From Candidatus Margulisbacteria bacterium GWF2_35_9 (GTDB taxonomy: Bacteria; Margulisbacteria; Riflemargulisbacteria; GWF2-35-9), in contig MFRH01000066.1 in NCBI GenBank assembly GCA_001783275.1, positions 10,033-26,176 of the forward strand: a stretch of 16,144 nucleotides of DNA, in the 5' to 3' direction. Below are positions 4,451 to 15,550 of this stretch, one piece after another. Both the position numbers and the translations under genes were made by a program. The first letter of the stretch is position 1. Every line of letters begins with the position of its first letter. Below the pieces are notes generated by a model. That model did no database searches. It saw only the letters and a program-made list of their open reading frames with translations, and was not told where the DNA came from.

Positions 4451-6125
4451 ATTATTTCTACTGAGTGCCCTATTCTTTCCGGCGATATGCGTTGCAGGCT
4501 TGTCACCACTTACCGGAATATATGATAAGGTAATCGCACAAGTTAGGCTTGAAGGTAATCATTATATTACCTCAGCTTCTATCTTTGCCTCAGTTAACTT
4601 TGAAGCTTCTGCTAACACTCTCGTGAAGGTAGAACAAGTTAGAAATGATATAGAAAATATCTATTCATTAGGTTTTTTTAAGAGTGTAAACGTGGCGCTA
4701 AAATCTGAGAAGCAAGGGCAAGTATTGATCTATCAGTTAGAAGAAAATCCCTTGATTAAAAAAATTGTTATTAATGGGATATCAGCAGAAGACGATAATT
4801 TTTTTTTAGAGGCGATGAATACTCGTCCTTTAACTGTATTGTCCTATAAAGTTATTGATGAAGATATTCAGAGAATTAATAAAAAGCTTGTTGATTATGG
4901 CTATTCTCTTAATAGAGTTAGTAACGTTGAATTTTTAACTACTAGTAACATCGTGTTGCTGAGCATCAAAGAAACTAAAATTAATAACGTATTGATAAAT
5001 GGTAACCAACGATTTGCTGATAATCTCATTTCTCGGGAAATGACTGCTAGGAAAGGCAGGGTTTTTAACTTAAATGAAGTGAGAAAAGACAGAGATATCA
5101 TACTTGGTTTAGGATATTTTTCATCAGTTTCTGCTCCTCAACTAGTGCCTGTAAAAGACACGGATGATATTGATATCGTCTTTTCGGTTGTCGAAAGAAA
5201 AGTGAATTCTATTTCCCTTGCTCTTGAAGAAGGGCGCAAGTCTATTAACCTGACTTTTCGTAATCAGCTTGTTAATTATTTGAAGTGGGGAGAGTCTTTT
5301 TCTGCAAGAGCACAGTACGGAGAAGAGCAACTGTATAGCCTGCATTTTTATCTTCCGTGGACATTTAATCAGAGAGTTTCTCTTGGATTGAATAAATGGC
5401 TTCAAATTAGCAGAGAAAGTGATAAAAATGGCATAGATTACGATGTATTACGCAATGGGGCAGATATAATTTGGGGCTTGCCGCTGGCTGATGAAATTAA
5501 AATGTATGTAACTTATCGAAGTGAAAATGTGCGTGAAAATGTAGCTGTTCCGTCAATAATCTATACAAAAAATGATATAGAACTTGCTATCTCTTATGAG
5601 AATCGAGACAGCTTAGTCAAACCGACTAATGGCAGCTATGGCTATGCTCAGGTCAGTAAAGGCGGGAACTACGGTTTGTTTGACCTTGGCGGAATCAATT
5701 ACGTTCGTATGAGCGCGAGCTATATGCAATTTTATAAAGTAAGAGATAAGCAGGTATTCGCCTTTCGTAATAGCTATGGATCATTCAGTCCTGACCAAAA
5801 TAACATTAAATTGCTGGAGTTAGATCTATTTACTATCGGAGGAGCATCTACAATAAGAGGTTATACTGACTCTACATCACGCAGAGGGTTGCATATGTTG
5901 ACGGGTAATTATGAATATAGAATATATTTAATGGAGGCTCTGTCACTGGTGTTTTTCTATGATATGGGTATCGTTTATGAACAGGAAATATCTTTATCAG
6001 ACTTCATTGCGGGGCGTGGTTTTGGGTTTAGGTTTTTCACACCTTTTGGACCTATCAGGCTAGATTTAGCGTGGTCTAATAGTAGTGATTTTGTCTTGCA
6101 TTTTGGTTTATCAGAAATGTTCTAA
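4398..6125 (+). CDS. tamA: Omp85-family outer-membrane protein (TamA/BamA-like; POTRA repeats plus C-terminal 16-strand barrel).
   Basis: 575 aa. Signal-peptide-like N-terminus (KLFLLSALFFPAICVAG). Repeated POTRA-like segments. C-terminal 'bacterial surface antigen' barrel with terminal motif …RFFTPFGPIRLDLAWS…HFGLSEMF ending in Phe. Size and adjacency to tamB favour TamA over the essential BamA. The ATG at 4398 overlaps the tamB 3' end by 53 nt, so the true start may be slightly downstream. Confidence 0.78.
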   Translation: MIIEVKEYLLLKQSTIFKLFLLSALFFPAICVAGLSPLTGIYDKVIAQVRLEGNHYITSASIFASVNFEASANTLVKVEQVRNDIENIYSLGFFKSVNVALKSEKQGQVLIYQLEENPLIKKIVINGISAEDDNFFLEAMNTRPLTVLSYKVIDEDIQRINKKLVDYGYSLNRVSNVEFLTTSNIVLLSIKETKINNVLINGNQRFADNLISREMTARKGRVFNLNEVRKDRDIILGLGYFSSVSAPQLVPVKDTDDIDIVFSVVERKVNSISLALEEGRKSINLTFRNQLVNYLKWGESFSARAQYGEEQLYSLHFYLPWTFNQRVSLGLNKWLQISRESDKNGIDYDVLRNGADIIWGLPLADEIKMYVTYRSENVRENVAVPSIIYTKNDIELAISYENRDSLVKPTNGSYGYAQVSKGGNYGLFDLGGINYVRMSASYMQFYKVRDKQVFAFRNSYGSFSPDQNNIKLLELDLFTIGGASTIRGYTDSTSRRGLHMLTGNYEYRIYLMEALSLVFFYDMGIVYEQEISLSDFIAGRGFGFRFFTPFGPIRLDLAWSNSSDFVLHFGLSEMF

Positions 6126-6369
6126 CTTTACTAAAAAGTATAGATTCAGGATTATCCATTCGAATTCTATAACCATCGAGTATATCAATAGCCTTGGCGA
6201 GAGCGAGAACACTCGGTTTCCCGCTAAGGAGTATACTGATTAATAACAGGAATACGGAACTAATGATACTAAGATATATTCCCTGCTTAATTGATGAGAG
6301 TGATTCAATTTAAAAAGCAAGGTCAACTCATTTCAAATATAGAATAAAATATACTAAAGGAGGATCGTG

Positions 6370-6846
6370 ATGGAAATAATCAAGTCTGATCATAATTTTG
6401 CAGCCGTGTGGATTGACCATAAGAAAGCAGTTATCTCTTTTCTTGATGATAAGGGGCATCGTGAGCAAGTTTTAACTATTGAGTCAAACGTAAGCGCTCA
6501 TATAAATTTCAAAACTGGACGGGGATATAGTAGCAACCAACATCTGCAAATGGTTAAACCAGCAATTAGTCAGGAGCGCAAACATCAAAGCCAGTTGAAG
6601 CGTTACTTCCAAGAAATAATACAAACGCTTAAAGGCATTGGTAGCTTCATCGTTATTGGTCCTGGGGAGGCCAAAATAGAATTTCAAAAAGAAATTCACA
6701 AAAACAAAGAACTTTTTCCACTTCTAAAAGAAGTTCTGCCCCAAGATAACATAACTGAAACCCAACTTGTTGCCTATGCCAAAAAATTCCATGTGCCAGT
6801 TGGATCACCTTTTACTGTGTCTAAGCCTAAACTGATTAGAAGGTAG
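6370..6846 (+). CDS. Hypothetical 158-aa protein, possibly Host_attach / bacterial eRF1-like (baeRF) fold.
   Basis: Strong SD AAAGGAGGA (6356-6364) lies 6 nt before ATG 6370 (GTG 6367 is the alternative). Sequence …AAVWIDHKKAVISFLDD…GIGSFIVIGPGEAKIEFQKEI… is reminiscent of the small Host_attach family. Ends TAG. Its 3' end overlaps the HDAC-like remnant on the opposite strand. Confidence 0.55.
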   Translation: MEIIKSDHNFAAVWIDHKKAVISFLDDKGHREQVLTIESNVSAHINFKTGRGYSSNQHLQMVKPAISQERKHQSQLKRYFQEIIQTLKGIGSFIVIGPGEAKIEFQKEIHKNKELFPLLKEVLPQDNITETQLVAYAKKFHVPVGSPFTVSKPKLIRR

Positions 6847-7396
6847 AGGGGTTTAAATTTATTGATTTTGTGAAGAGCTTTGATAAGGGTTTCTTTGTAT
6901 TCTTCATAAGTAATGTGCTCTGGCATAGGATAATTAACATTAAAGCCTTGGCCTATCCCCTCGCCTATTTCCTCTGTAAAACCAGAAAAATAAGGATAAG
7001 CAACGCGGGGATTTCCGTGGATGGACAAACAGAGAAGGTTTGGGTTTTAACTTTTATACAGAGATTGGTTTTTTCCAGTTCAGCCATGATGGAAGCAACT
7101 CTTACAGGAGATTCGACATAACCCCGCTCCTTAACGTGATGAATATAATGCTTCTCATTAAATATCAAGGCAATTTTTTGCCTGTCTTTTATCAAAAAGT
7201 CTCGGGATGGGATAGGTTTTTTAATATATATTTTTTCTCTGCATTTTACTGGGTCATCCTTAAAGGAATTTAGAACCATGCGCATATATTTGGGTGAACA
7301 CAAATCGGAGTATTTGCGTCTAAGGATAGCTTTAACAATTTTTACGGTTGATTCCAAGTGAAGGTTATTTTTATCAGCTTCCAAACTATCAAACAT
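6774..7396 (-). pseudogene. Histone-deacetylase/acetylpolyamine-amidohydrolase (HDAC-fold) gene remnant. Two overlapping reading frames, with the catalytic core deleted.
   Basis: The upstream ORF (7396..6965) contains the N-terminal HDAC block …IALIFNEKHYIHHVKERGYVESPVRVASIMAELEKT (the HPE-x-P-x-R region). The downstream ORF (7028..6774), in another frame, carries YPYFSGFTEEIGEGIGQGFNVNYPMPEHITYEEY (FPGTG…G-x-G…N-x-PL motif) and …ISLGLDTVKGDPTGTWNF (G-x-D…DPLG block). About 150 aa between these blocks are missing, including the HH and D-x-H zinc/catalytic residues. The 3' end is overrun by the convergent gene at 6370-6846. Confidence 0.6.
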
Positions 7397-7402
7397 CAGC
7401 TA

Positions 7403-7912
7403 AGGAGGATTATCATCCCCTTCATTTAAGGGTGTTTCATATTTGGTATTCACGATAGAGGTCACTCCAAAACGTTCATAAAACTTGAGGCGACTGATAT
7501 TTTCCTTGAGGATATTGGGGGTCCTTACAAAGAGTAGAATCATCTGGCAGACATTCAAAAAACAAGCCGATACTTTTTAGCTTTTTCGCTTCTGAACGTG
7601 CTTTTTCATATAGAATGCTACCTATCTGCCGGAAAAACCTTTTTTGGTGGCGATGTAATCCAGAAAGCTGAAATTCAAGTCTGGAGCATGAAACAAAAGC
7701 GCAAAGGCATCCACGCTTCCTTTATAATTATCAGCTACCAGCAAAATAGACCTGAATTTGTATTTTAAGGGATTATGAAGTTGTTCAGTTAATTGTTGTA
7801 TTTTTTCTTCTTTAACACTAGGGAATTGAGCCCTGATAATATCCTGAACCTGAATAATTACTTTTTGATTAGCAGGATACAGAGCATCATGAATACGTCT
7901 TATTCTTAACAT
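7403..7912 (-). pseudogene. GNAT-family acetyltransferase paralogue interrupted by two in-frame stop codons (TAG at 7624..7622, TAA at 7579..7577).
   Basis: ORF 7912..7625 (96 aa) ends …LDYIATKKGFSGR*. The same frame continues VAFYMKKHVQKRKS*KVSACFLNVCQMILLFVRTPNILKENISRLKFYERFGVTSI…, ending at TAG 7402..7400. The tail carries the GNAT C-terminal 'FYE+FGF'-like motif. The total is about 170 codons, a normal GNAT size. It starts directly after the upstream GNAT's TAA (TAAATG). TAA and TAG are bona fide stops elsewhere in the window. Confidence 0.55.
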
Positions 7913-8413
7913 TTACACGACTTTTACAAAGATGACTTTGTCGTCATTGGGCCCGTAGAAATCTTTTAACTGGGCTTCCACTATATAGTCGCTTTTTTGA
8001 TAGAATTTTCGGGTGGGTATGTATAGGTCTTTAGATGATGTTTCCACATAGATACGACCTCCCCCAATTTCCTTGATAATCATCTCGGTTCGTTTCATAA
8101 GCTCTTTGCCTATTCCGCTCTTTTGATATGTATTCTCTACAGCAATCCAGTATAGGTCGTAACTTGAAGCAGTACCCATAATCGGCCCATAACACACATA
8201 TCCAATAACTTCGCCTTCATTTTCAGCAAAAAGGAAATAGTAGCCACTTTCTTTACCTTTCTGGAGACGTTCATCAATAAGTTCAACCGCAATTTCCTGT
8301 TCTTCCTCATTAAAGAAATCCGTAGATTTAATTATCCTACGAATAGCTTCTGAATCAGTACCCAACGTTTCCTGCCGAAAGTTTAAAGAGATATTCGTTA
8401 GTTTATTTTTCAT
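7913..8413 (-). CDS. GNAT-family N-acetyltransferase (166 aa).
   Basis: Motif A …YQKSGIGKELMKRTEMIIKEIGGGRIYVETS… and C-terminal …KFYQKSDYIVEAQ… . ATG 8413-8411 overlaps the TGA of the upstream ATP-grasp gene (ATGA). Confidence 0.85.
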   Translation of the reverse strand: MKNKLTNISLNFRQETLGTDSEAIRRIIKSTDFFNEEEQEIAVELIDERLQKGKESGYYFLFAENEGEVIGYVCYGPIMGTASSYDLYWIAVENTYQKSGIGKELMKRTEMIIKEIGGGRIYVETSSKDLYIPTRKFYQKSDYIVEAQLKDFYGPNDDKVIFVKVV

Positions 8414-9402
8414 GTAGGTATCCTTATAGCTTTTATTATAATTTCAATCATTTCTTTGTAAGAAAGACCGCTTTCTTTTGCTGCTGCGACAAATCCACTA
8501 TCTTCAGCTATTCCTGGATTTGCATTAACTTCAAGTATCCATGGACGGTTGTGTTTATCCACCCGGAAATCTACTCTAGCATATGCGTTAAGACCAAAGA
8601 GTTTCCAGCAATTTAATGAAATCTGTTTAAGTTCATCCAACAACTTTTTATCACTGTCTTTGAAGGTAAATGTCCGACTGGTATTTTTATATTCAAAGGT
8701 GGTTTCCTCCCACTTAGCGGCATAGCTTACTATTTTTGCTTTGTCTTTTGGAAAATTGAAAAACTGCATTTCGGCAGGTGGTAAAACAGTTGGATTAGAA
8801 TCGGGACCAATAATGGAAATATTAAATTCCCGACCATCTATATATTCTTCAGCAAAAAAATGGTCATGCAGTCTTTCGTTCCTGTCCAGAATGAAATCGT
8901 TTAAGGCTTGTCCGCTATTAAAAGTTTTTACTGAAGAATCATCAATATTTATAGAGGCATCCTCTACTATAGATTTTACAATTACACGCTTGTTTTCTAA
9001 GGGAACAGCAGATGAAGAAGTCTTAGGATCATACCATTCTGCTGTTGGCAGGATTGCCTGTCTTAACACCGTTTTGCTTAATACCTTGTCTGTTGTTAAA
9101 TAAATGGCCTCCGCAGAACATCCACTGTATGGAATTGCGTAAAAATCTAGTAGGGCTGGGACAAGATGTAAAAAACGTCCCTCCATTTCAACCAGATTAA
9201 ATACAAACTCAGCGGTTTTTAGCTCAGGAAGAATGGACGTCAAATTTTCAGGAGATACTTGTTTTATAAGTGGATCATAGCCCAAGGCTATAATGGCCTC
9301 GTTAACATTCTTTATCTGAACAAGCGTATCCAACTGATCCTCTGCATTAGGATCAGTTATCTGCTGATGCAAAAGCACCACATTTTTTAAACGTGTAGTC
9401 AT
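8410..9402 (-). CDS. D-alanine-D-alanine-ligase-like ATP-grasp amide ligase (about 330 aa).
   Basis: C-terminal …YARVDFRVDKHNRPWILEVNANPGIAEDSGF… matches the Ddl ATP-grasp Mg/ATP site. The N-terminal Ddl-like Rossmann domain starts at MTTRLKNVVLLHQQ. I place the start at ATG 9402-9400, which forms an ATGA overlap with the upstream stop. The longest-ORF start at 9486 would instead give an 88-nt overlap. Confidence 0.82.
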   Translation of the reverse strand: MTTRLKNVVLLHQQITDPNAEDQLDTLVQIKNVNEAIIALGYDPLIKQVSPENLTSILPELKTAEFVFNLVEMEGRFLHLVPALLDFYAIPYSGCSAEAIYLTTDKVLSKTVLRQAILPTAEWYDPKTSSSAVPLENKRVIVKSIVEDASINIDDSSVKTFNSGQALNDFILDRNERLHDHFFAEEYIDGREFNISIIGPDSNPTVLPPAEMQFFNFPKDKAKIVSYAAKWEETTFEYKNTSRTFTFKDSDKKLLDELKQISLNCWKLFGLNAYARVDFRVDKHNRPWILEVNANPGIAEDSGFVAAAKESGLSYKEMIEIIIKAIRIPT

Positions 9403-11729
9403 TGCATGACCGGAGTAAGTCTTTTTACAGCTGAATCCATAATCATTTGGATCAGTTTTGTATAAGGGATTCCCATATGTCTGCAAAGAATTGGCAGGTC
9501 CGAATCATTCGGGTTTAGTCCAGCAAGTGTATTAACCTCAATAAAGTTAGGAACTCCATTTTTATCCAGACGCATATCAATTCTCCCACCATCTCTACAT
9601 CCCAAAGCTTTCCATGCTTTGATAGCGATATCTGCACTTTTTTGGGCTTCAATATCTGTTGCTATTGTATAGTGAATCATTTCCTCATAATTTTGCTTAT
9701 TAGCGTAAGAATATATCTCTTGTTCCGCATTTTTTGAAATGAATACTTCTAAGACTCCAAGAGCTTTCGCTTCAGATCCTGTACCAACTATTCCAATAGT
9801 GAATTCTCTTCCTGGCAGAAATTCTTCAACAAGAACTGCTTGTTGAAATTTAACCAACAAGTCTTTGACCGTTTGATGCAAAGTTTCTTTATCCTTTATT
9901 TTTGAAGTGGCAGTAACTCCTTTACTGCTACCTTCCGCCACTGGTTTAGCGAATAACGGGAATTCCAGATTAATGTTTTCTATATCCTCTACATTTTCCA
10001 CTACATGAAAAGCAGCGGTAGGAATTCCTTTATCTTTTAACACATGCTTTACAAGGCCTTTATGCTGGGAAAGTGAATGAATGGTTGAAGATGAAAAGGT
10101 AGAAGGAATGCCATACGCATCTAATAGGCTGGGCACTTGAGACTCCCGGGATATTCCATGTAGACCTTCGGCAATATTAAACACCAAATCCCATTTTTTC
10201 CCATTGTGCAATAGGTGAACCAAATTATGAATATTACCGATTCGATCTGTTTCGTAGCCTAATTCCTTCAAACTATTTTCAATGGCTTCAATGGTTTCTA
10301 TTTTATCAAATTCAGCGATATCCTCATTGCTGTATCCCATATTTTTATAATCTTCTTTCAAGTCATAACAGATGCCAACTTTGAGTTTTTTGCTTTTCTG
10401 CTCAGAAACAGGGTCATAGTAAGAATATATCTTGTCCTGATAGTTTTTCAACATAACCTGATTGCCATTCCGTCCAATATAATACTCTGGTAATATCGGG
10501 ATTTTTCCTCCTCCACCAGGAGCGTCTATTACATAATGAGGAATAGCATAACCAGAGGTGTGGCCTCTTAATCCCTTGATGATTTCCAGTCCTTTTTCTA
10601 CACTTGTTCGGAAGTGAGAAGATCCTTCAATAAGATCGCACTGATACAAATAGTAGGGGCGGACTCGAATCTTGAGTAGTTCATGGAACAGCTTCTTCAT
10701 AATGGGGACACTGTCATTTATACCTTTTAGTAAAACCGTCTGACTACCCAAGGGAATGCCAGCATCGGCAAGCCGATTGCAGGCCTCTCTTGTTTCTTCT
10801 GTTATTTCATCTGGATGAGTGAAATGCAGACTTAAATACAGTGGCTTGTACTTCTGCAGAATCTTTAGCAATTTTTTGGTTATTCTTTGTGGCAAGACAG
10901 CTGGTATTTTGGAGCCAATCCGAATAATTTCAAGATGTTTTATTTCGCTTAATCCTGAAAGCAACCAGTCTAGTTGCTTATCTGAAAGCGTCAAAGGATC
11001 TCCACCGGAAATAATAACATCACGTATTTCGGTATGGGCCTGAATATAATCAATAGAATCCTGCCAATCAGCAAAACCGGTTTTTTGTTTTTTAGTTACA
11101 TGACCTACTACCCGAGAGCGGGTGCAGTATCGGCAATTGACAGAACAAAAACTGGTTGCCAGAAAAAGGGCCCGGTCTGGGTATCGATGTATAATACCAT
11201 TTACGGGTCGAGTAGTGTCTTCTCCTAAGGGATCAAAGGATTCTTCCTGTGTAATTTTCAATTCATCTATAACTGGAATAACCGAACGGCGTATAGATTG
11301 TTTTCCATTTCTTTCATCCAGAAGGCTTGCATAATAGGGAGTTATTGAGATCGGAAGCTTCCCAAGTTTGCCTCTTTTTTCAAGTATCTCCCGTTCAGTA
11401 TTGCTTAGTGTAACAAATGTTTCCAGTTGTTTTAATGTTCGAATCCTGTTACGCAACTGCCACTTCCAGTTACCCCAGTTAATTTTTGTCGATCCAGGAA
11501 AGTGTTTATGATAAAACTTTGCGGATTTATTAGAAATTGGGAAACCATGGTTTTTGTTTGGGATAACAGAAGGAAGGGACATAAGATTTTTTTCATAAAT
11601 CGGCAATCTCAGACCGTGTTTTGGTAAAATAGCAATTATAGTGCCAAGCGGAGGCTCTCCTTCATCGGAATTTTCCTCAGAAATGGAACCTATATCAACC
11701 AGATTTAGGTTATTATTTTTTGTTATCAT
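9399..11729 (-). CDS. kamA: Fusion protein: lysine 2,3-aminomutase (radical-SAM KamA/AblA, residues about 70-440) fused to a C-terminal D-Ala-D-Ala-ligase-like ATP-grasp domain (about 450-776).
   Basis: N-terminal part is block-by-block colinear with Clostridium subterminale LAM: WGNWKWQLRNRI, ITPYYASLLD, HRYPDRALFLATSFCSVNCRYCTRSR (CxxxCxxC), IISGGDPLTLSD, RIGSKIPAVLPQRIT, RVRPYYLYQCDL, GLRGHTSGYAIPHYVIDAPGGGGK. C-terminal part is colinear with Ddl: WDLVFNIAEGLHG, PLFAKPVAEGSSKGV, VLVEEFLPGREFTIGIVG, GCRDGGRIDMRLDKNGVPNFIEVNTLAGL. Ends TGA at 9401-9399. Confidence 0.9.
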   Translation of the reverse strand: MITKNNNLNLVDIGSISEENSDEGEPPLGTIIAILPKHGLRLPIYEKNLMSLPSVIPNKNHGFPISNKSAKFYHKHFPGSTKINWGNWKWQLRNRIRTLKQLETFVTLSNTEREILEKRGKLGKLPISITPYYASLLDERNGKQSIRRSVIPVIDELKITQEESFDPLGEDTTRPVNGIIHRYPDRALFLATSFCSVNCRYCTRSRVVGHVTKKQKTGFADWQDSIDYIQAHTEIRDVIISGGDPLTLSDKQLDWLLSGLSEIKHLEIIRIGSKIPAVLPQRITKKLLKILQKYKPLYLSLHFTHPDEITEETREACNRLADAGIPLGSQTVLLKGINDSVPIMKKLFHELLKIRVRPYYLYQCDLIEGSSHFRTSVEKGLEIIKGLRGHTSGYAIPHYVIDAPGGGGKIPILPEYYIGRNGNQVMLKNYQDKIYSYYDPVSEQKSKKLKVGICYDLKEDYKNMGYSNEDIAEFDKIETIEAIENSLKELGYETDRIGNIHNLVHLLHNGKKWDLVFNIAEGLHGISRESQVPSLLDAYGIPSTFSSSTIHSLSQHKGLVKHVLKDKGIPTAAFHVVENVEDIENINLEFPLFAKPVAEGSSKGVTATSKIKDKETLHQTVKDLLVKFQQAVLVEEFLPGREFTIGIVGTGSEAKALGVLEVFISKNAEQEIYSYANKQNYEEMIHYTIATDIEAQKSADIAIKAWKALGCRDGGRIDMRLDKNGVPNFIEVNTLAGLNPNDSDLPILCRHMGIPYTKLIQMIMDSAVKRLTPVMQ

Positions 11730-14260: not shown

Positions 14261-15550
14261 ATGAGGCTCTTAAACTTTCAGGTTAATTACTATAAATGCA
14301 TCAGTGATTCCGGTATTATCAACATTAACGATATTGCGTGTTTCATTGGCAACAACAATAGTGGAAAAACAGCTTTATTTGAAGCTCTTTACAAATTGAA
14401 CCCCGCTTTTTCGAAAAACAAGTTTTTTGAGTCTGATGATTTTCCAAAAGACAAGATTGAATACCAAAACTCTAAAACAAGAGTAATTACTTGTACCTTT
14501 AAACTAACTGATGCAGAATTAATATTTATTAATAAAAAATTTGGAGACCATTGCATAAATTCCGATATTATTACTGTATCAAGAGACTATGCAAATAATC
14601 TCCATTGGGATTTTGAAATTAACGAAGAAAGTTATGTTAAACATCTTATTGATAAAAGAAATTTAACAAAATTATTTGAGAAACATTTAAGTAAGATTAA
14701 TTCAGTGGAATCCTGCTATAGTGTTGCGAAGGAATTGCCTCCTCTATCAACCAGCCTCGTTTCGTTTATTACCCAACTTGAATTATTGAAAATTCGTTCA
14801 ATGAAGGAAGAAATTATTGAAGGATACTTTCAACACTGGATACCCAAATTCCTATATATTTCTGAAGTTCATAAGCTACCGGGTTATTTTTCATTAAAAC
14901 AAATAACCAAAGCCCTCTCTTCATCAGATGATGTTAAAGAAGCTGCAAAAACAGCTTTAGCTTTCTTAAAACTACTGGAAGTAGATATTAACAGCTTATT
15001 AACCGAACCAGATAATAATAAACTACTTGAAACAATGAATAACTTATCAAGTAATCTGTCATCACACCTTTCTTCCATTTTACAAATTTTTGAACATCTA
15101 CAAATTGATATTGATATTCAATCCCTAGTTGCCCAAAATGTTCGTATTGATTCCACAATTTATATCAACATAACCAATAAAGAAACTAAGATCACTTTAC
15201 CTATTGGAAAACATGGAAAATCACTAGTTTATTTTTTATCGTTCCTTTGCTCCTTATCAATAATAAAAGATAAAACCGAACCATATATAATACTTATTGA
15301 TACACCCTCAGATCATTTAAGCATCGATGCTCAATCCGAATTTTGTAAATATATTCATGATGTATTAACACAAAAACACCAAATTCTATATACAACACAT
15401 TCTCCATTTATGATTAATACGAAAGCAAAAGACAATCTTTATTCTGTCTTTATCAAACCAAACTTCGGGACTGTCGTATCTCAAGACGTAAACTCAGATT
15501 CACTGACAAAGAAGATTTCAGATATCGCAGACAAATTCTATTCGAAATAA
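14261..15550 (+). CDS. OLD/AAA_15-type ABC ATPase (429 aa) with a degenerate Walker B. Putative orphan defence/abortive-infection ATPase.
   Basis: N-terminus MRLLNFQVNYYKCI…ININDIACFIGNNNSGKTALFEAL matches the OLD-family start (MkIkslkIkNF…) and has the P-loop GxNxSGKT. It has a long helical insert. The C-terminal …PYIILIDTPSDHLSIDAQ…QILYTTHSPFMI gives Walker B hhhhD plus the TTHSP H-loop. The canonical DEPE…LHP is DTPS…LSI here. No TOPRIM or nuclease domain is present, and no partner gene lies downstream. Confidence 0.72.
   Translation: MRLLNFQVNYYKCISDSGIININDIACFIGNNNSGKTALFEALYKLNPAFSKNKFFESDDFPKDKIEYQNSKTRVITCTFKLTDAELIFINKKFGDHCINSDIITVSRDYANNLHWDFEINEESYVKHLIDKRNLTKLFEKHLSKINSVESCYSVAKELPPLSTSLVSFITQLELLKIRSMKEEIIEGYFQHWIPKFLYISEVHKLPGYFSLKQITKALSSSDDVKEAAKTALAFLKLLEVDINSLLTEPDNNKLLETMNNLSSNLSSHLSSILQIFEHLQIDIDIQSLVAQNVRIDSTIYINITNKETKITLPIGKHGKSLVYFLSFLCSLSIIKDKTEPYIILIDTPSDHLSIDAQSEFCKYIHDVLTQKHQILYTTHSPFMINTKAKDNLYSVFIKPNFGTVVSQDVNSDSLTKKISDIADKFYSK

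Follow-up and report, generated by a model that had tools for sequence, protein, structure and literature searches.

The best structural counterparts of the gene described here are the acetylpolyamine amidohydrolases (APAHs). When the deacetylase domain of an intact homologue (P0003) was compared with solved structures, APAHs gave the best matches (PDB 6PHR, 9GKZ, 3Q9B and 3MEN; E=1.6e-71 to 2e-60), which extend along its full length, and intact relatives of the gene carry the NCBI label 'acetylpolyamine amidohydrolase'. Its neighbourhood recalls the ablA–ablB operon for N-epsilon-acetyl-beta-lysine, a compatible solute of methanogens, which likewise combines a KamA-family lysine-2,3-aminomutase with a GNAT acetyltransferase. 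According to one report on Bacillus (PMC13121692), AcuA and AcuC, a GNAT and a classical zinc deacetylase encoded in one locus, form an acetylation/deacetylation couple acting on acetyl-CoA synthetase. Here we describe a locus in Candidatus Margulisbacteria bacterium GWF2_35_9, analysed within a window of 16,144 nucleotides (nt; contig MFRH01000066.1, positions 10,033 to 26,176 of the forward strand). An earlier note, made from the letters of the window, had placed at 6774-7396 the remnant of an HDAC-fold deacetylase gene with its catalytic core deleted. We find that a deacetylase-fold pseudogene of this kind is indeed present and that minus-strand 6774-7912 is very probably what is left of a single ancestral gene of ~580-590 codons, in which a GNAT domain, a linker and a deacetylase domain were joined. 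The wreck, ~1.1 kb long, is an ordinary and fairly young pseudogene in the genome of a groundwater Margulisbacteria member.

Remains of one GNAT–linker–deacetylase gene

Two minus-strand open reading frames (ORFs) in different frames occupy the flagged site, at 6965-7396 (143 aa) and 6774-7028 (84 aa). As the earlier note had proposed, both fragments were searched with PF00850 (Hist_deacetyl). The 84-aa ORF gives a significant match (E=7.6e-18; 65 bits, cutoff 27.9) to positions 170-251 of the 298 in the profile, and a Pfam scan of the 143-aa ORF returned no match, because only 28 residues of the deacetylase domain remain in it. The C-terminal fragment is thus recognized by the superfamily profile and the N-terminal fragment by the family profile only. 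The last third of the 143-aa ORF (…KIALIFNEKHYIHHVKERGYVESPVRVASIMAELEKTNL…) aligns with the N-termini of deacetylase homologues of 340-360 aa (tblastn, E 1e-12 to 1e-20). This 143-aa sequence is publicly recorded exactly, as the hypothetical protein A2Y40_08380 of Candidatus Margulisbacteria bacterium GWF2_35_9.

Two homologues, P0095 and P0098, have a GNAT-like start, followed by a linker and then the deacetylase domain. Residues 1-293 of P0095 align by tblastn to 7912-7034 of the window, and the alignments of P0095, P0220 and P0221 all begin at 7912. Our initial homologue search returned only proteins shorter than 500 aa, so that many of its hits are truncated or split gene calls, and full-length members were taken from a search run exhaustively against 1.84 billion protein representatives. 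Many full-length relatives in that search are 575-600 aa long, and a few of 738-762 aa have an extra C-terminal GNAT domain. A family profile of 581 positions was built from 20 full-length members and run on all stop-to-stop minus-strand fragments between 6300 and 8000. Five collinear pieces were matched, from 7912 down to 6783, while profile positions 295-444 and 530-581 had no match in any minus-strand frame of that interval.

The first piece (profile 1-94, 7912-7631, frame A, 87 bits, E=3e-27) holds the first 94 profile positions of the N-terminal GNAT domain, at 7631-7912, and lies within an annotated 96-aa ORF (7622-7912). The second (profile 84-136, 7667-7509, frame C, 29.7 bits, E=7e-10) supplies the middle of the GNAT domain (IGSILYEKARSEAKKLKSIGLFFECLPDDSTLCKDP), which we assign to 7518-7625 and which is read in the shifted frame only. 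The end of the domain (NILKENISRLKFYERFGV...NPP, 7403-7516) is provided by the third (profile 119-169, 7561-7409, frame A, 31 bits, E=2.6e-10). The fourth (profile 173-294, 7399-7031, frame A, 101 bits, E=1.5e-31) spans a domain border. In the intact relative P0221, PF00850 covers residues 265-568, and since it begins at residue 265, the part of the 143-aa ORF at 7396-7118 belongs to the linker, and the deacetylase domain contributes only its beginning, 7117-7034. We accordingly divide this piece into the inter-domain linker (7118-7399, profile 173-264), which makes up most of A2Y40_08380, and the first 28 deacetylase residues (VESPVRVASIMAELEKTNLCIKVKTQTF; 7034-7117, profile 265-293), the 'HPE region' of the earlier note, which is also aligned by tblastn with P0002, P0003 and P0006. 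The fifth piece (profile 445-529, 7037-6783, frame C, 134 bits, E=2e-41) is the C-terminal block of the deacetylase (LSIHGNPRVAYPYFSGF...SLGLDTVKGDPTGTWNF; 6783-7037) and contains the PF00850 match given above. A conceptual translation repaired at the breaks aligns without indels to profile positions 1-293 (288 bits) and 445-529 (128 bits), and its N-terminal part exceeds the PF00583 threshold (24.4 versus 20.7 bits). The remnant therefore matches the GNAT domain, the linker and the deacetylase domain of the fusion family in collinear order, with no uninterrupted full-length frame left.

The earlier note had instead described a stand-alone HDAC remnant within 6774-7396, flanked by intact GNATs and recording a dismantled acetylation/deacetylation cycle in a host-associated or genome-reducing organism. 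Both of its deacetylase blocks are real and they do lie in different frames (7399-7031 with profile 173-294, 7037-6783 with profile 445-529), the 150-residue gap between them is real as well, and the fusion and linkage data given below make a pairing of acetylation with deacetylation plausible. However, what looks like a second GNAT at 7400-7912 is the N-terminal domain, in broken form, of the gene to which the deacetylase blocks belong, and 7118-7396 is linker, so that the proposed interval does contain a remnant but has the wrong upstream limit, which runs to 7912. The blocks also carry the literal motifs YVESPVR, YPYFSGF and GDPTG, not HPE, FPGTG and DPLG. The lifestyle proposed for the organism found no support: the genome of this uncultured organism is from aquifer groundwater, and published work (PMC6349859) describes the Riflemargulisbacteria, the clade of Margulisbacteria from the Rifle aquifer, as fermenters associated with sediment, a statement about the clade, to which this metagenome-assembled genome may belong. 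The ORF listing and a Pfam scan of the main ORFs showed no other broken gene in the 16 kb, no systematic pseudogene screen having been made. Taken together, these results leave the stand-alone version scarcely credible and favour a single fused gene.

Five lesions and the loss of the catalytic residues

Five independent lesions killed the fusion gene, all described here as read on the minus strand. The first (7622-7627) is a frameshift in the acetyl-CoA motif (G-R-G-I-G-S) of the GNAT domain, where AG alone (7627-7626) stands in place of two codons and leaves profile positions 96-97 without codons; the deletion was of 4 nt, or of 1 nt plus 3 nt, and is followed by a premature TAG (7624-7622). 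The second is a +1 insertion in a run of five C (7517-7521; five G on the plus strand) by which the original frame is regained. The sequence here reads GAC CCC C/AAT ATC where the family has K-D-P-N/L-I/V-L, and profile pieces 2 and 3 overlap at this site. The third (7400-7402) is an in-frame TAG that replaces a conserved Tyr, a single-base change from TAT or TAC, giving NPP-stop-LMFDSL as opposed to NPPYLVLDSLG in the closest relatives (P0122, P0102 and P0127). The fourth (junction at 7031-7040) is an internal deletion of ~450 nt accompanied by a change of frame, across which the profile jumps from 293/294 to 445. The fifth is a 3' truncation (junction at 6774-6792): deacetylase homology stops at 6783 (…GDPTGTWNF), position 529 of the 581 in the profile, and the frame runs into a TAG at 6776-6774.

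The two large deletions removed the catalytic residues. The 150 profile positions lost in the fourth lesion (295-444) include RPPGHHA, with the His dyad, and DIDYHHGNG, with the Asp and His zinc ligands, both of which are common to all 20 full-length relatives. The only one of the three zinc ligands that is kept is the Asp of SLGLDT (6832-6818). The fifth lesion removed the last 52 positions (530-581), including EGGY with the catalytic Tyr. The earlier estimate of about 150 missing residues was thus exact in number, but it had counted all zinc ligands as lost when two of the three are, and the C-terminal block it took to have survived did so only in part. No functional product is expected from the remnant, which is predicted to be a non-enzyme, and the short annotated ORFs (96 aa and 143 aa) would be by-products of its decay. 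Public annotation can be corrected accordingly, the two 'hypothetical proteins' belonging to one pseudogene. Two apparent motifs in other frames were considered and rejected. 'EFFGIGNKLG', a candidate for a residual deacetylase C-terminus beyond 6783, has no profile signal, and 'FHHG', found by a tblastn extension in the shifted frame at 7094-7083, is a chance reading of bases whose continuous N-terminal frame gives the strongly conserved SIMAELEKTNL. A repeat scan of 6100-8500 revealed nothing that would account for the deletions.

Because the source is a metagenome-assembled genome, and one of the lesions sits in a homopolymer (C5 at 7517-7521), we asked whether the real genome could carry an intact fusion gene, the lesions being products of read collapse or mis-joining. 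The original scaffold at ENA (64.6 kb), JGI 3300025154 and a Logan re-assembly of SRR3309375, three separately produced assemblies, are 100% identical over 6300-8450 (2151 nt), and the locus is not an artefact of one assembly. No repeats able to cause a collapse are present in that interval. The five lesions fall into four kinds, among them a nonsense substitution and two extensive deletions, and the terminal deletion fits the altered end of the neighbouring gene described below. We consider an artefact very unlikely. The locus thus combines homology to a family with intact members and lesions that are reproducible across three assemblies, as expected of a pseudogene.

A further alternative is that the fragments function in reduced form, the 96- or 143-aa ORF serving in binding or regulation without catalysis, or a longer product being restored by frameshift recoding. 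The surviving codons are well conserved relative to the family, and ORFs of 96, 143 and 158 aa are called as genes in public annotations. Against this, the 96-aa ORF terminates ahead of the acetyl-CoA motif, and the 143-aa ORF consists mostly of linker with 28 domain residues and an out-of-frame tail. Programmed frameshifting is ruled out since the catalytic residues are physically gone: recoding cannot bring back the 150 and 52 lost residues. Among the search hits, this truncated architecture does not recur in any homologue as a conserved form. There is hardly any chance, in our judgement, that the fragments are functional, and a dead gene is the reading we retain. The conservation of its surviving segments bears instead on its age. 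Homologues outside the profile set that are presumably intact score 280-323 bits over profile positions 1-293 and 141-147 bits over 445-529, and the repaired segments of the remnant, at 288 and 128 bits, score almost as they do, which suggests that inactivation was evolutionarily recent and that there has been little neutral drift.

Further insight into the terminal deletion is provided by the convergent gene on the plus strand (6367-6846, A2Y40_08375), an intact gene for a small Dom34/pelota-like protein. One homologue is labelled a Dom34-type ribosome-rescue protein, and there is a weak match to the pelota model TIGR00111 (E=0.005). Members of this family (126-162 aa) share invariant WIDHKKAVI and GPGEAKIEF motifs and have no Pfam domain. 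The ORF at 6367-6846(+) overlaps the deacetylase remnant ORF by 73 nt, as the earlier note had recognized for the 3' end of the remnant. Family homology of the Dom34-like protein ends at K-F-H142 (6790-6792), and its last 17 codons (VPVGSPFTVSKPKLIRR, 6793-6843) are deacetylase sequence (SLGLDTVKGDPTGTW) read in antisense. An unrelated locus (L004) shows this antisense reading too. The Dom34-like and deacetylase homologies meet within ~10 nt (6792 versus 6783), and a single deletion is therefore the simplest reading: it would have taken the deacetylase C-terminus together with the spacer between the two genes and the original end of the Dom34-like gene, which would now read through to the first stop in the antisense pseudogene sequence. 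A terminator scan of 6100-8500 found none between the convergent genes. For annotation, the tail of the Dom34-like protein is best regarded as a by-product of the deletion.

The operon and its proposed former deacetylase step

Upstream of the remnant, an intact and tightly packed operon spans 7913-11729(-), and the ATG of the pseudogene at 7912 directly adjoins the stop of the last intact gene. By Pfam and NCBIfam assignment the operon encodes a KamA-type aminomutase fused to a first ATP-grasp domain (9399-11729), a second ATP-grasp ligase (8410-9486) and a 166-aa GNAT (7913-8413). As the earlier note had placed it, the remnant is the last gene of this series, which the fusion gene would once have closed. 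Its product would have consisted of an N-terminal GNAT acetyltransferase domain, a linker of ~90 residues and an APAH-type zinc-dependent deacetylase domain. The aminomutase domain matches the lysine-2,3-aminomutase PDB 2A5H (E=5e-123) and retains the equivalents of Asp293 and Asp330, which we take to bind the lysine side-chain amine. It scores 490 bits with TIGR03820 (AblA), below the 525-bit cutoff, compared with 442 bits for the glutamate-2,3-aminomutase and 400 bits for the arginine-2,3-aminomutase model. The label 'beta-lysine operon' given in the earlier note is, on these sequence comparisons, reasonable but unproven.

A functional link between the deacetylase and the GNATs and aminomutase, as the earlier note had supposed, is backed by both domain fusion and gene linkage. 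Besides the GNATn–HDAC arrangement, GNATn–HDAC–GNATc proteins occur (P0220 and P0244), and in the three-domain protein P0220 the last domain, a C-terminal GNAT, is a homologue of the 166-aa GNAT of the window (residues 597-754 versus 8389-7916, 44% identity). The same five components are linked in two contigs from unrelated lineages, L003 and L014, with 40-63% identity to those of the window. They are ordered aminomutase, ATP-grasp, ATP-grasp and GNAT–deacetylase–GNAT in L003 (3-5165), and aminomutase, GNAT–deacetylase, ATP-grasp, ATP-grasp and GNAT in L014 (6711-12236). In two related Margulisbacteria (L001 and L002) the core genes are 73%, 63% and 63-65% identical to those of the window, and the operon (L001 4575-8402; L002 120-3947) closes with the small GNAT. 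The following gene begins 30-60 nt further on, and neither a fusion gene nor a remnant of one was found. Since both keep the three core genes without the fusion gene, the deacetylase step is dispensable and appears to be accessory. The three core genes can remain intact after loss of the fusion gene, which helps to separate core from accessory steps of the pathway.

We found no description of a module of aminomutase, ATP-grasp, deacetylase and GNAT in the searchable literature, and it is apparently undescribed. Its gene order and fusions vary by lineage: aminomutase and ATP-grasp are fused in Margulisbacteria and separate elsewhere, and the GNAT–APAH component is optional. In intact systems the deacetylase domain would strip acetyl from a small N-acetylated amine that the aminomutase, ATP-grasp and GNAT enzymes make or handle. 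Deacetylation of a small amine is suggested because the intact deacetylase domain is closest to solved APAHs, enzymes whose substrates are small N-acetylated amines, and it is with low confidence that we propose a small acetylated amine tied to the products of the operon as the substrate of the ancestral protein. Going further, the recurring linkage (L003, L014 and the window), the Rosetta-stone fusions and channel or sucrose neighbours in L004, L009 and L013 hint at a widely scattered, undescribed pathway that would make and recycle a small N-acetylated peptide containing beta-lysine, an osmolyte or a protected or bioactive amine, with the fusion protein as an optional step of de-protection or recycling. 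If so, this genome would be a natural knockout and two sister lineages would have completed the loss. We put this forward as a tentative proposal that is more likely wrong than right.

Stand-alone copies of the fusion gene were seen at six loci, several of them beside genes for mechanosensitive channels or sucrose synthesis. In L004 (11724-12029), L013 (3375-4235) and L009 (1-39 and 1614-7954) such copies adjoin MscL- or MscS-type channels and, in L009, genes for sucrose-phosphate synthase and sucrose synthase. We take these neighbours as a loose hint of a link to osmotic adaptation. In L001 (2040-3710, Marinamargulisbacteria), EarP, the rhamnosyltransferase of EF-P, and EF-P itself are encoded just upstream of the aminomutase–ATP-grasp operon, with one 145-aa ORF between. 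In other bacteria the beta-lysine used to modify EF-P comes from a KamA paralogue. A connection between EarP/EF-P and the aminomutase operon in L001 is conceivable, and the arrangement could equally be a coincidence.

The fusion family also includes an in-frame shortened variant of 463 aa (P0121; L011 825-2216) without profile positions 281-337 and 474-535. The second of these gaps covers the region of the third zinc ligand, and the variant is found on four contigs from three sources. Copies split by frameshifts were noted in L003 (4351-4425), L014 (9239), L004 (11428-11452), L008 (9167-9173), L009 and L010, the L003 copy also being without profile positions 466-512. We do not read these split copies as a sign of family-wide decay, since the search favoured proteins shorter than 500 aa and some of the contigs look like long-read assemblies. 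Elsewhere in the window, the plus strand encodes a treble-clef zinc-finger protein (PF23477, 12980-13360) and an ATPase of the AAA_15/AAA_21 type (14261-15550), both within AT-rich sequence (GC 0.29-0.30). ATPases of this type are often found in defence systems.

Several points weigh against our interpretation of the locus. The size of the first lesion (1 or 4 nt) and the deletion junctions are placed only to within a few bases. The population may hold intact minority alleles, and the three assemblies may share read sets. Both the putative substrate of the deacetylase and its tie to beta-lysine are drawn from fusion and linkage, and the fusion gene has no aminomutase nearby in six of the nine contexts sampled. 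Finally, no relative above 73% identity was found that shows the intact ancestral gene in this lineage, so the gene may just as well have been acquired recently and then decayed as have been an old member of the operon that was lost. Overall, apart from the annotation and the distinction of core from accessory steps, the remnant represents ordinary gene decay and gives no reliable word on lifestyle. It is of mild interest as a member of an uncharacterised fusion family inside a recurring five-part module, next to a gene that gained a new tail by deletion.

Comparison with known systems

The motifs FP(H/Y)F-x-GF and GxD...DP shared by APAHs both survive in the window. Solved APAH chains, at 341-362 aa, have the length of a single domain, to which the fusion family adds an N-terminal GNAT domain and a linker, and sometimes a C-terminal GNAT domain. 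Unlike APAHs, the copy in the window is without the His dyad, two zinc ligands and the catalytic Tyr, and is not an enzyme. AcuA and AcuC are separate proteins with a protein lysine as their target, whereas the family described here joins both domains in one protein, with a deacetylase of the small-molecule, APAH-like type, and is partnered by an aminomutase and ATP-grasp ligases. With regard to the ablA–ablB operon, the 166-aa GNAT of the window matches generic GNAT models only (best rimI, 43 bits), and the AblB model is absent from its 14 hits at E<=0.01. To our knowledge, the abl operon also lacks both the two D-Ala–D-Ala-ligase-like ATP-grasp enzymes and the GNAT–deacetylase fusion, all of which belong to the locus in the window, the fusion ancestrally. 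The closest overall likeness is to ordinary bacterial pseudogenes, with the same multiple lesions, lost catalytic residues, recognisable homology and spurious ORFs annotated as hypothetical proteins. Compared with these, the remnant has one unusual detail, in that a deletion re-terminated its convergent neighbour on antisense pseudogene sequence.

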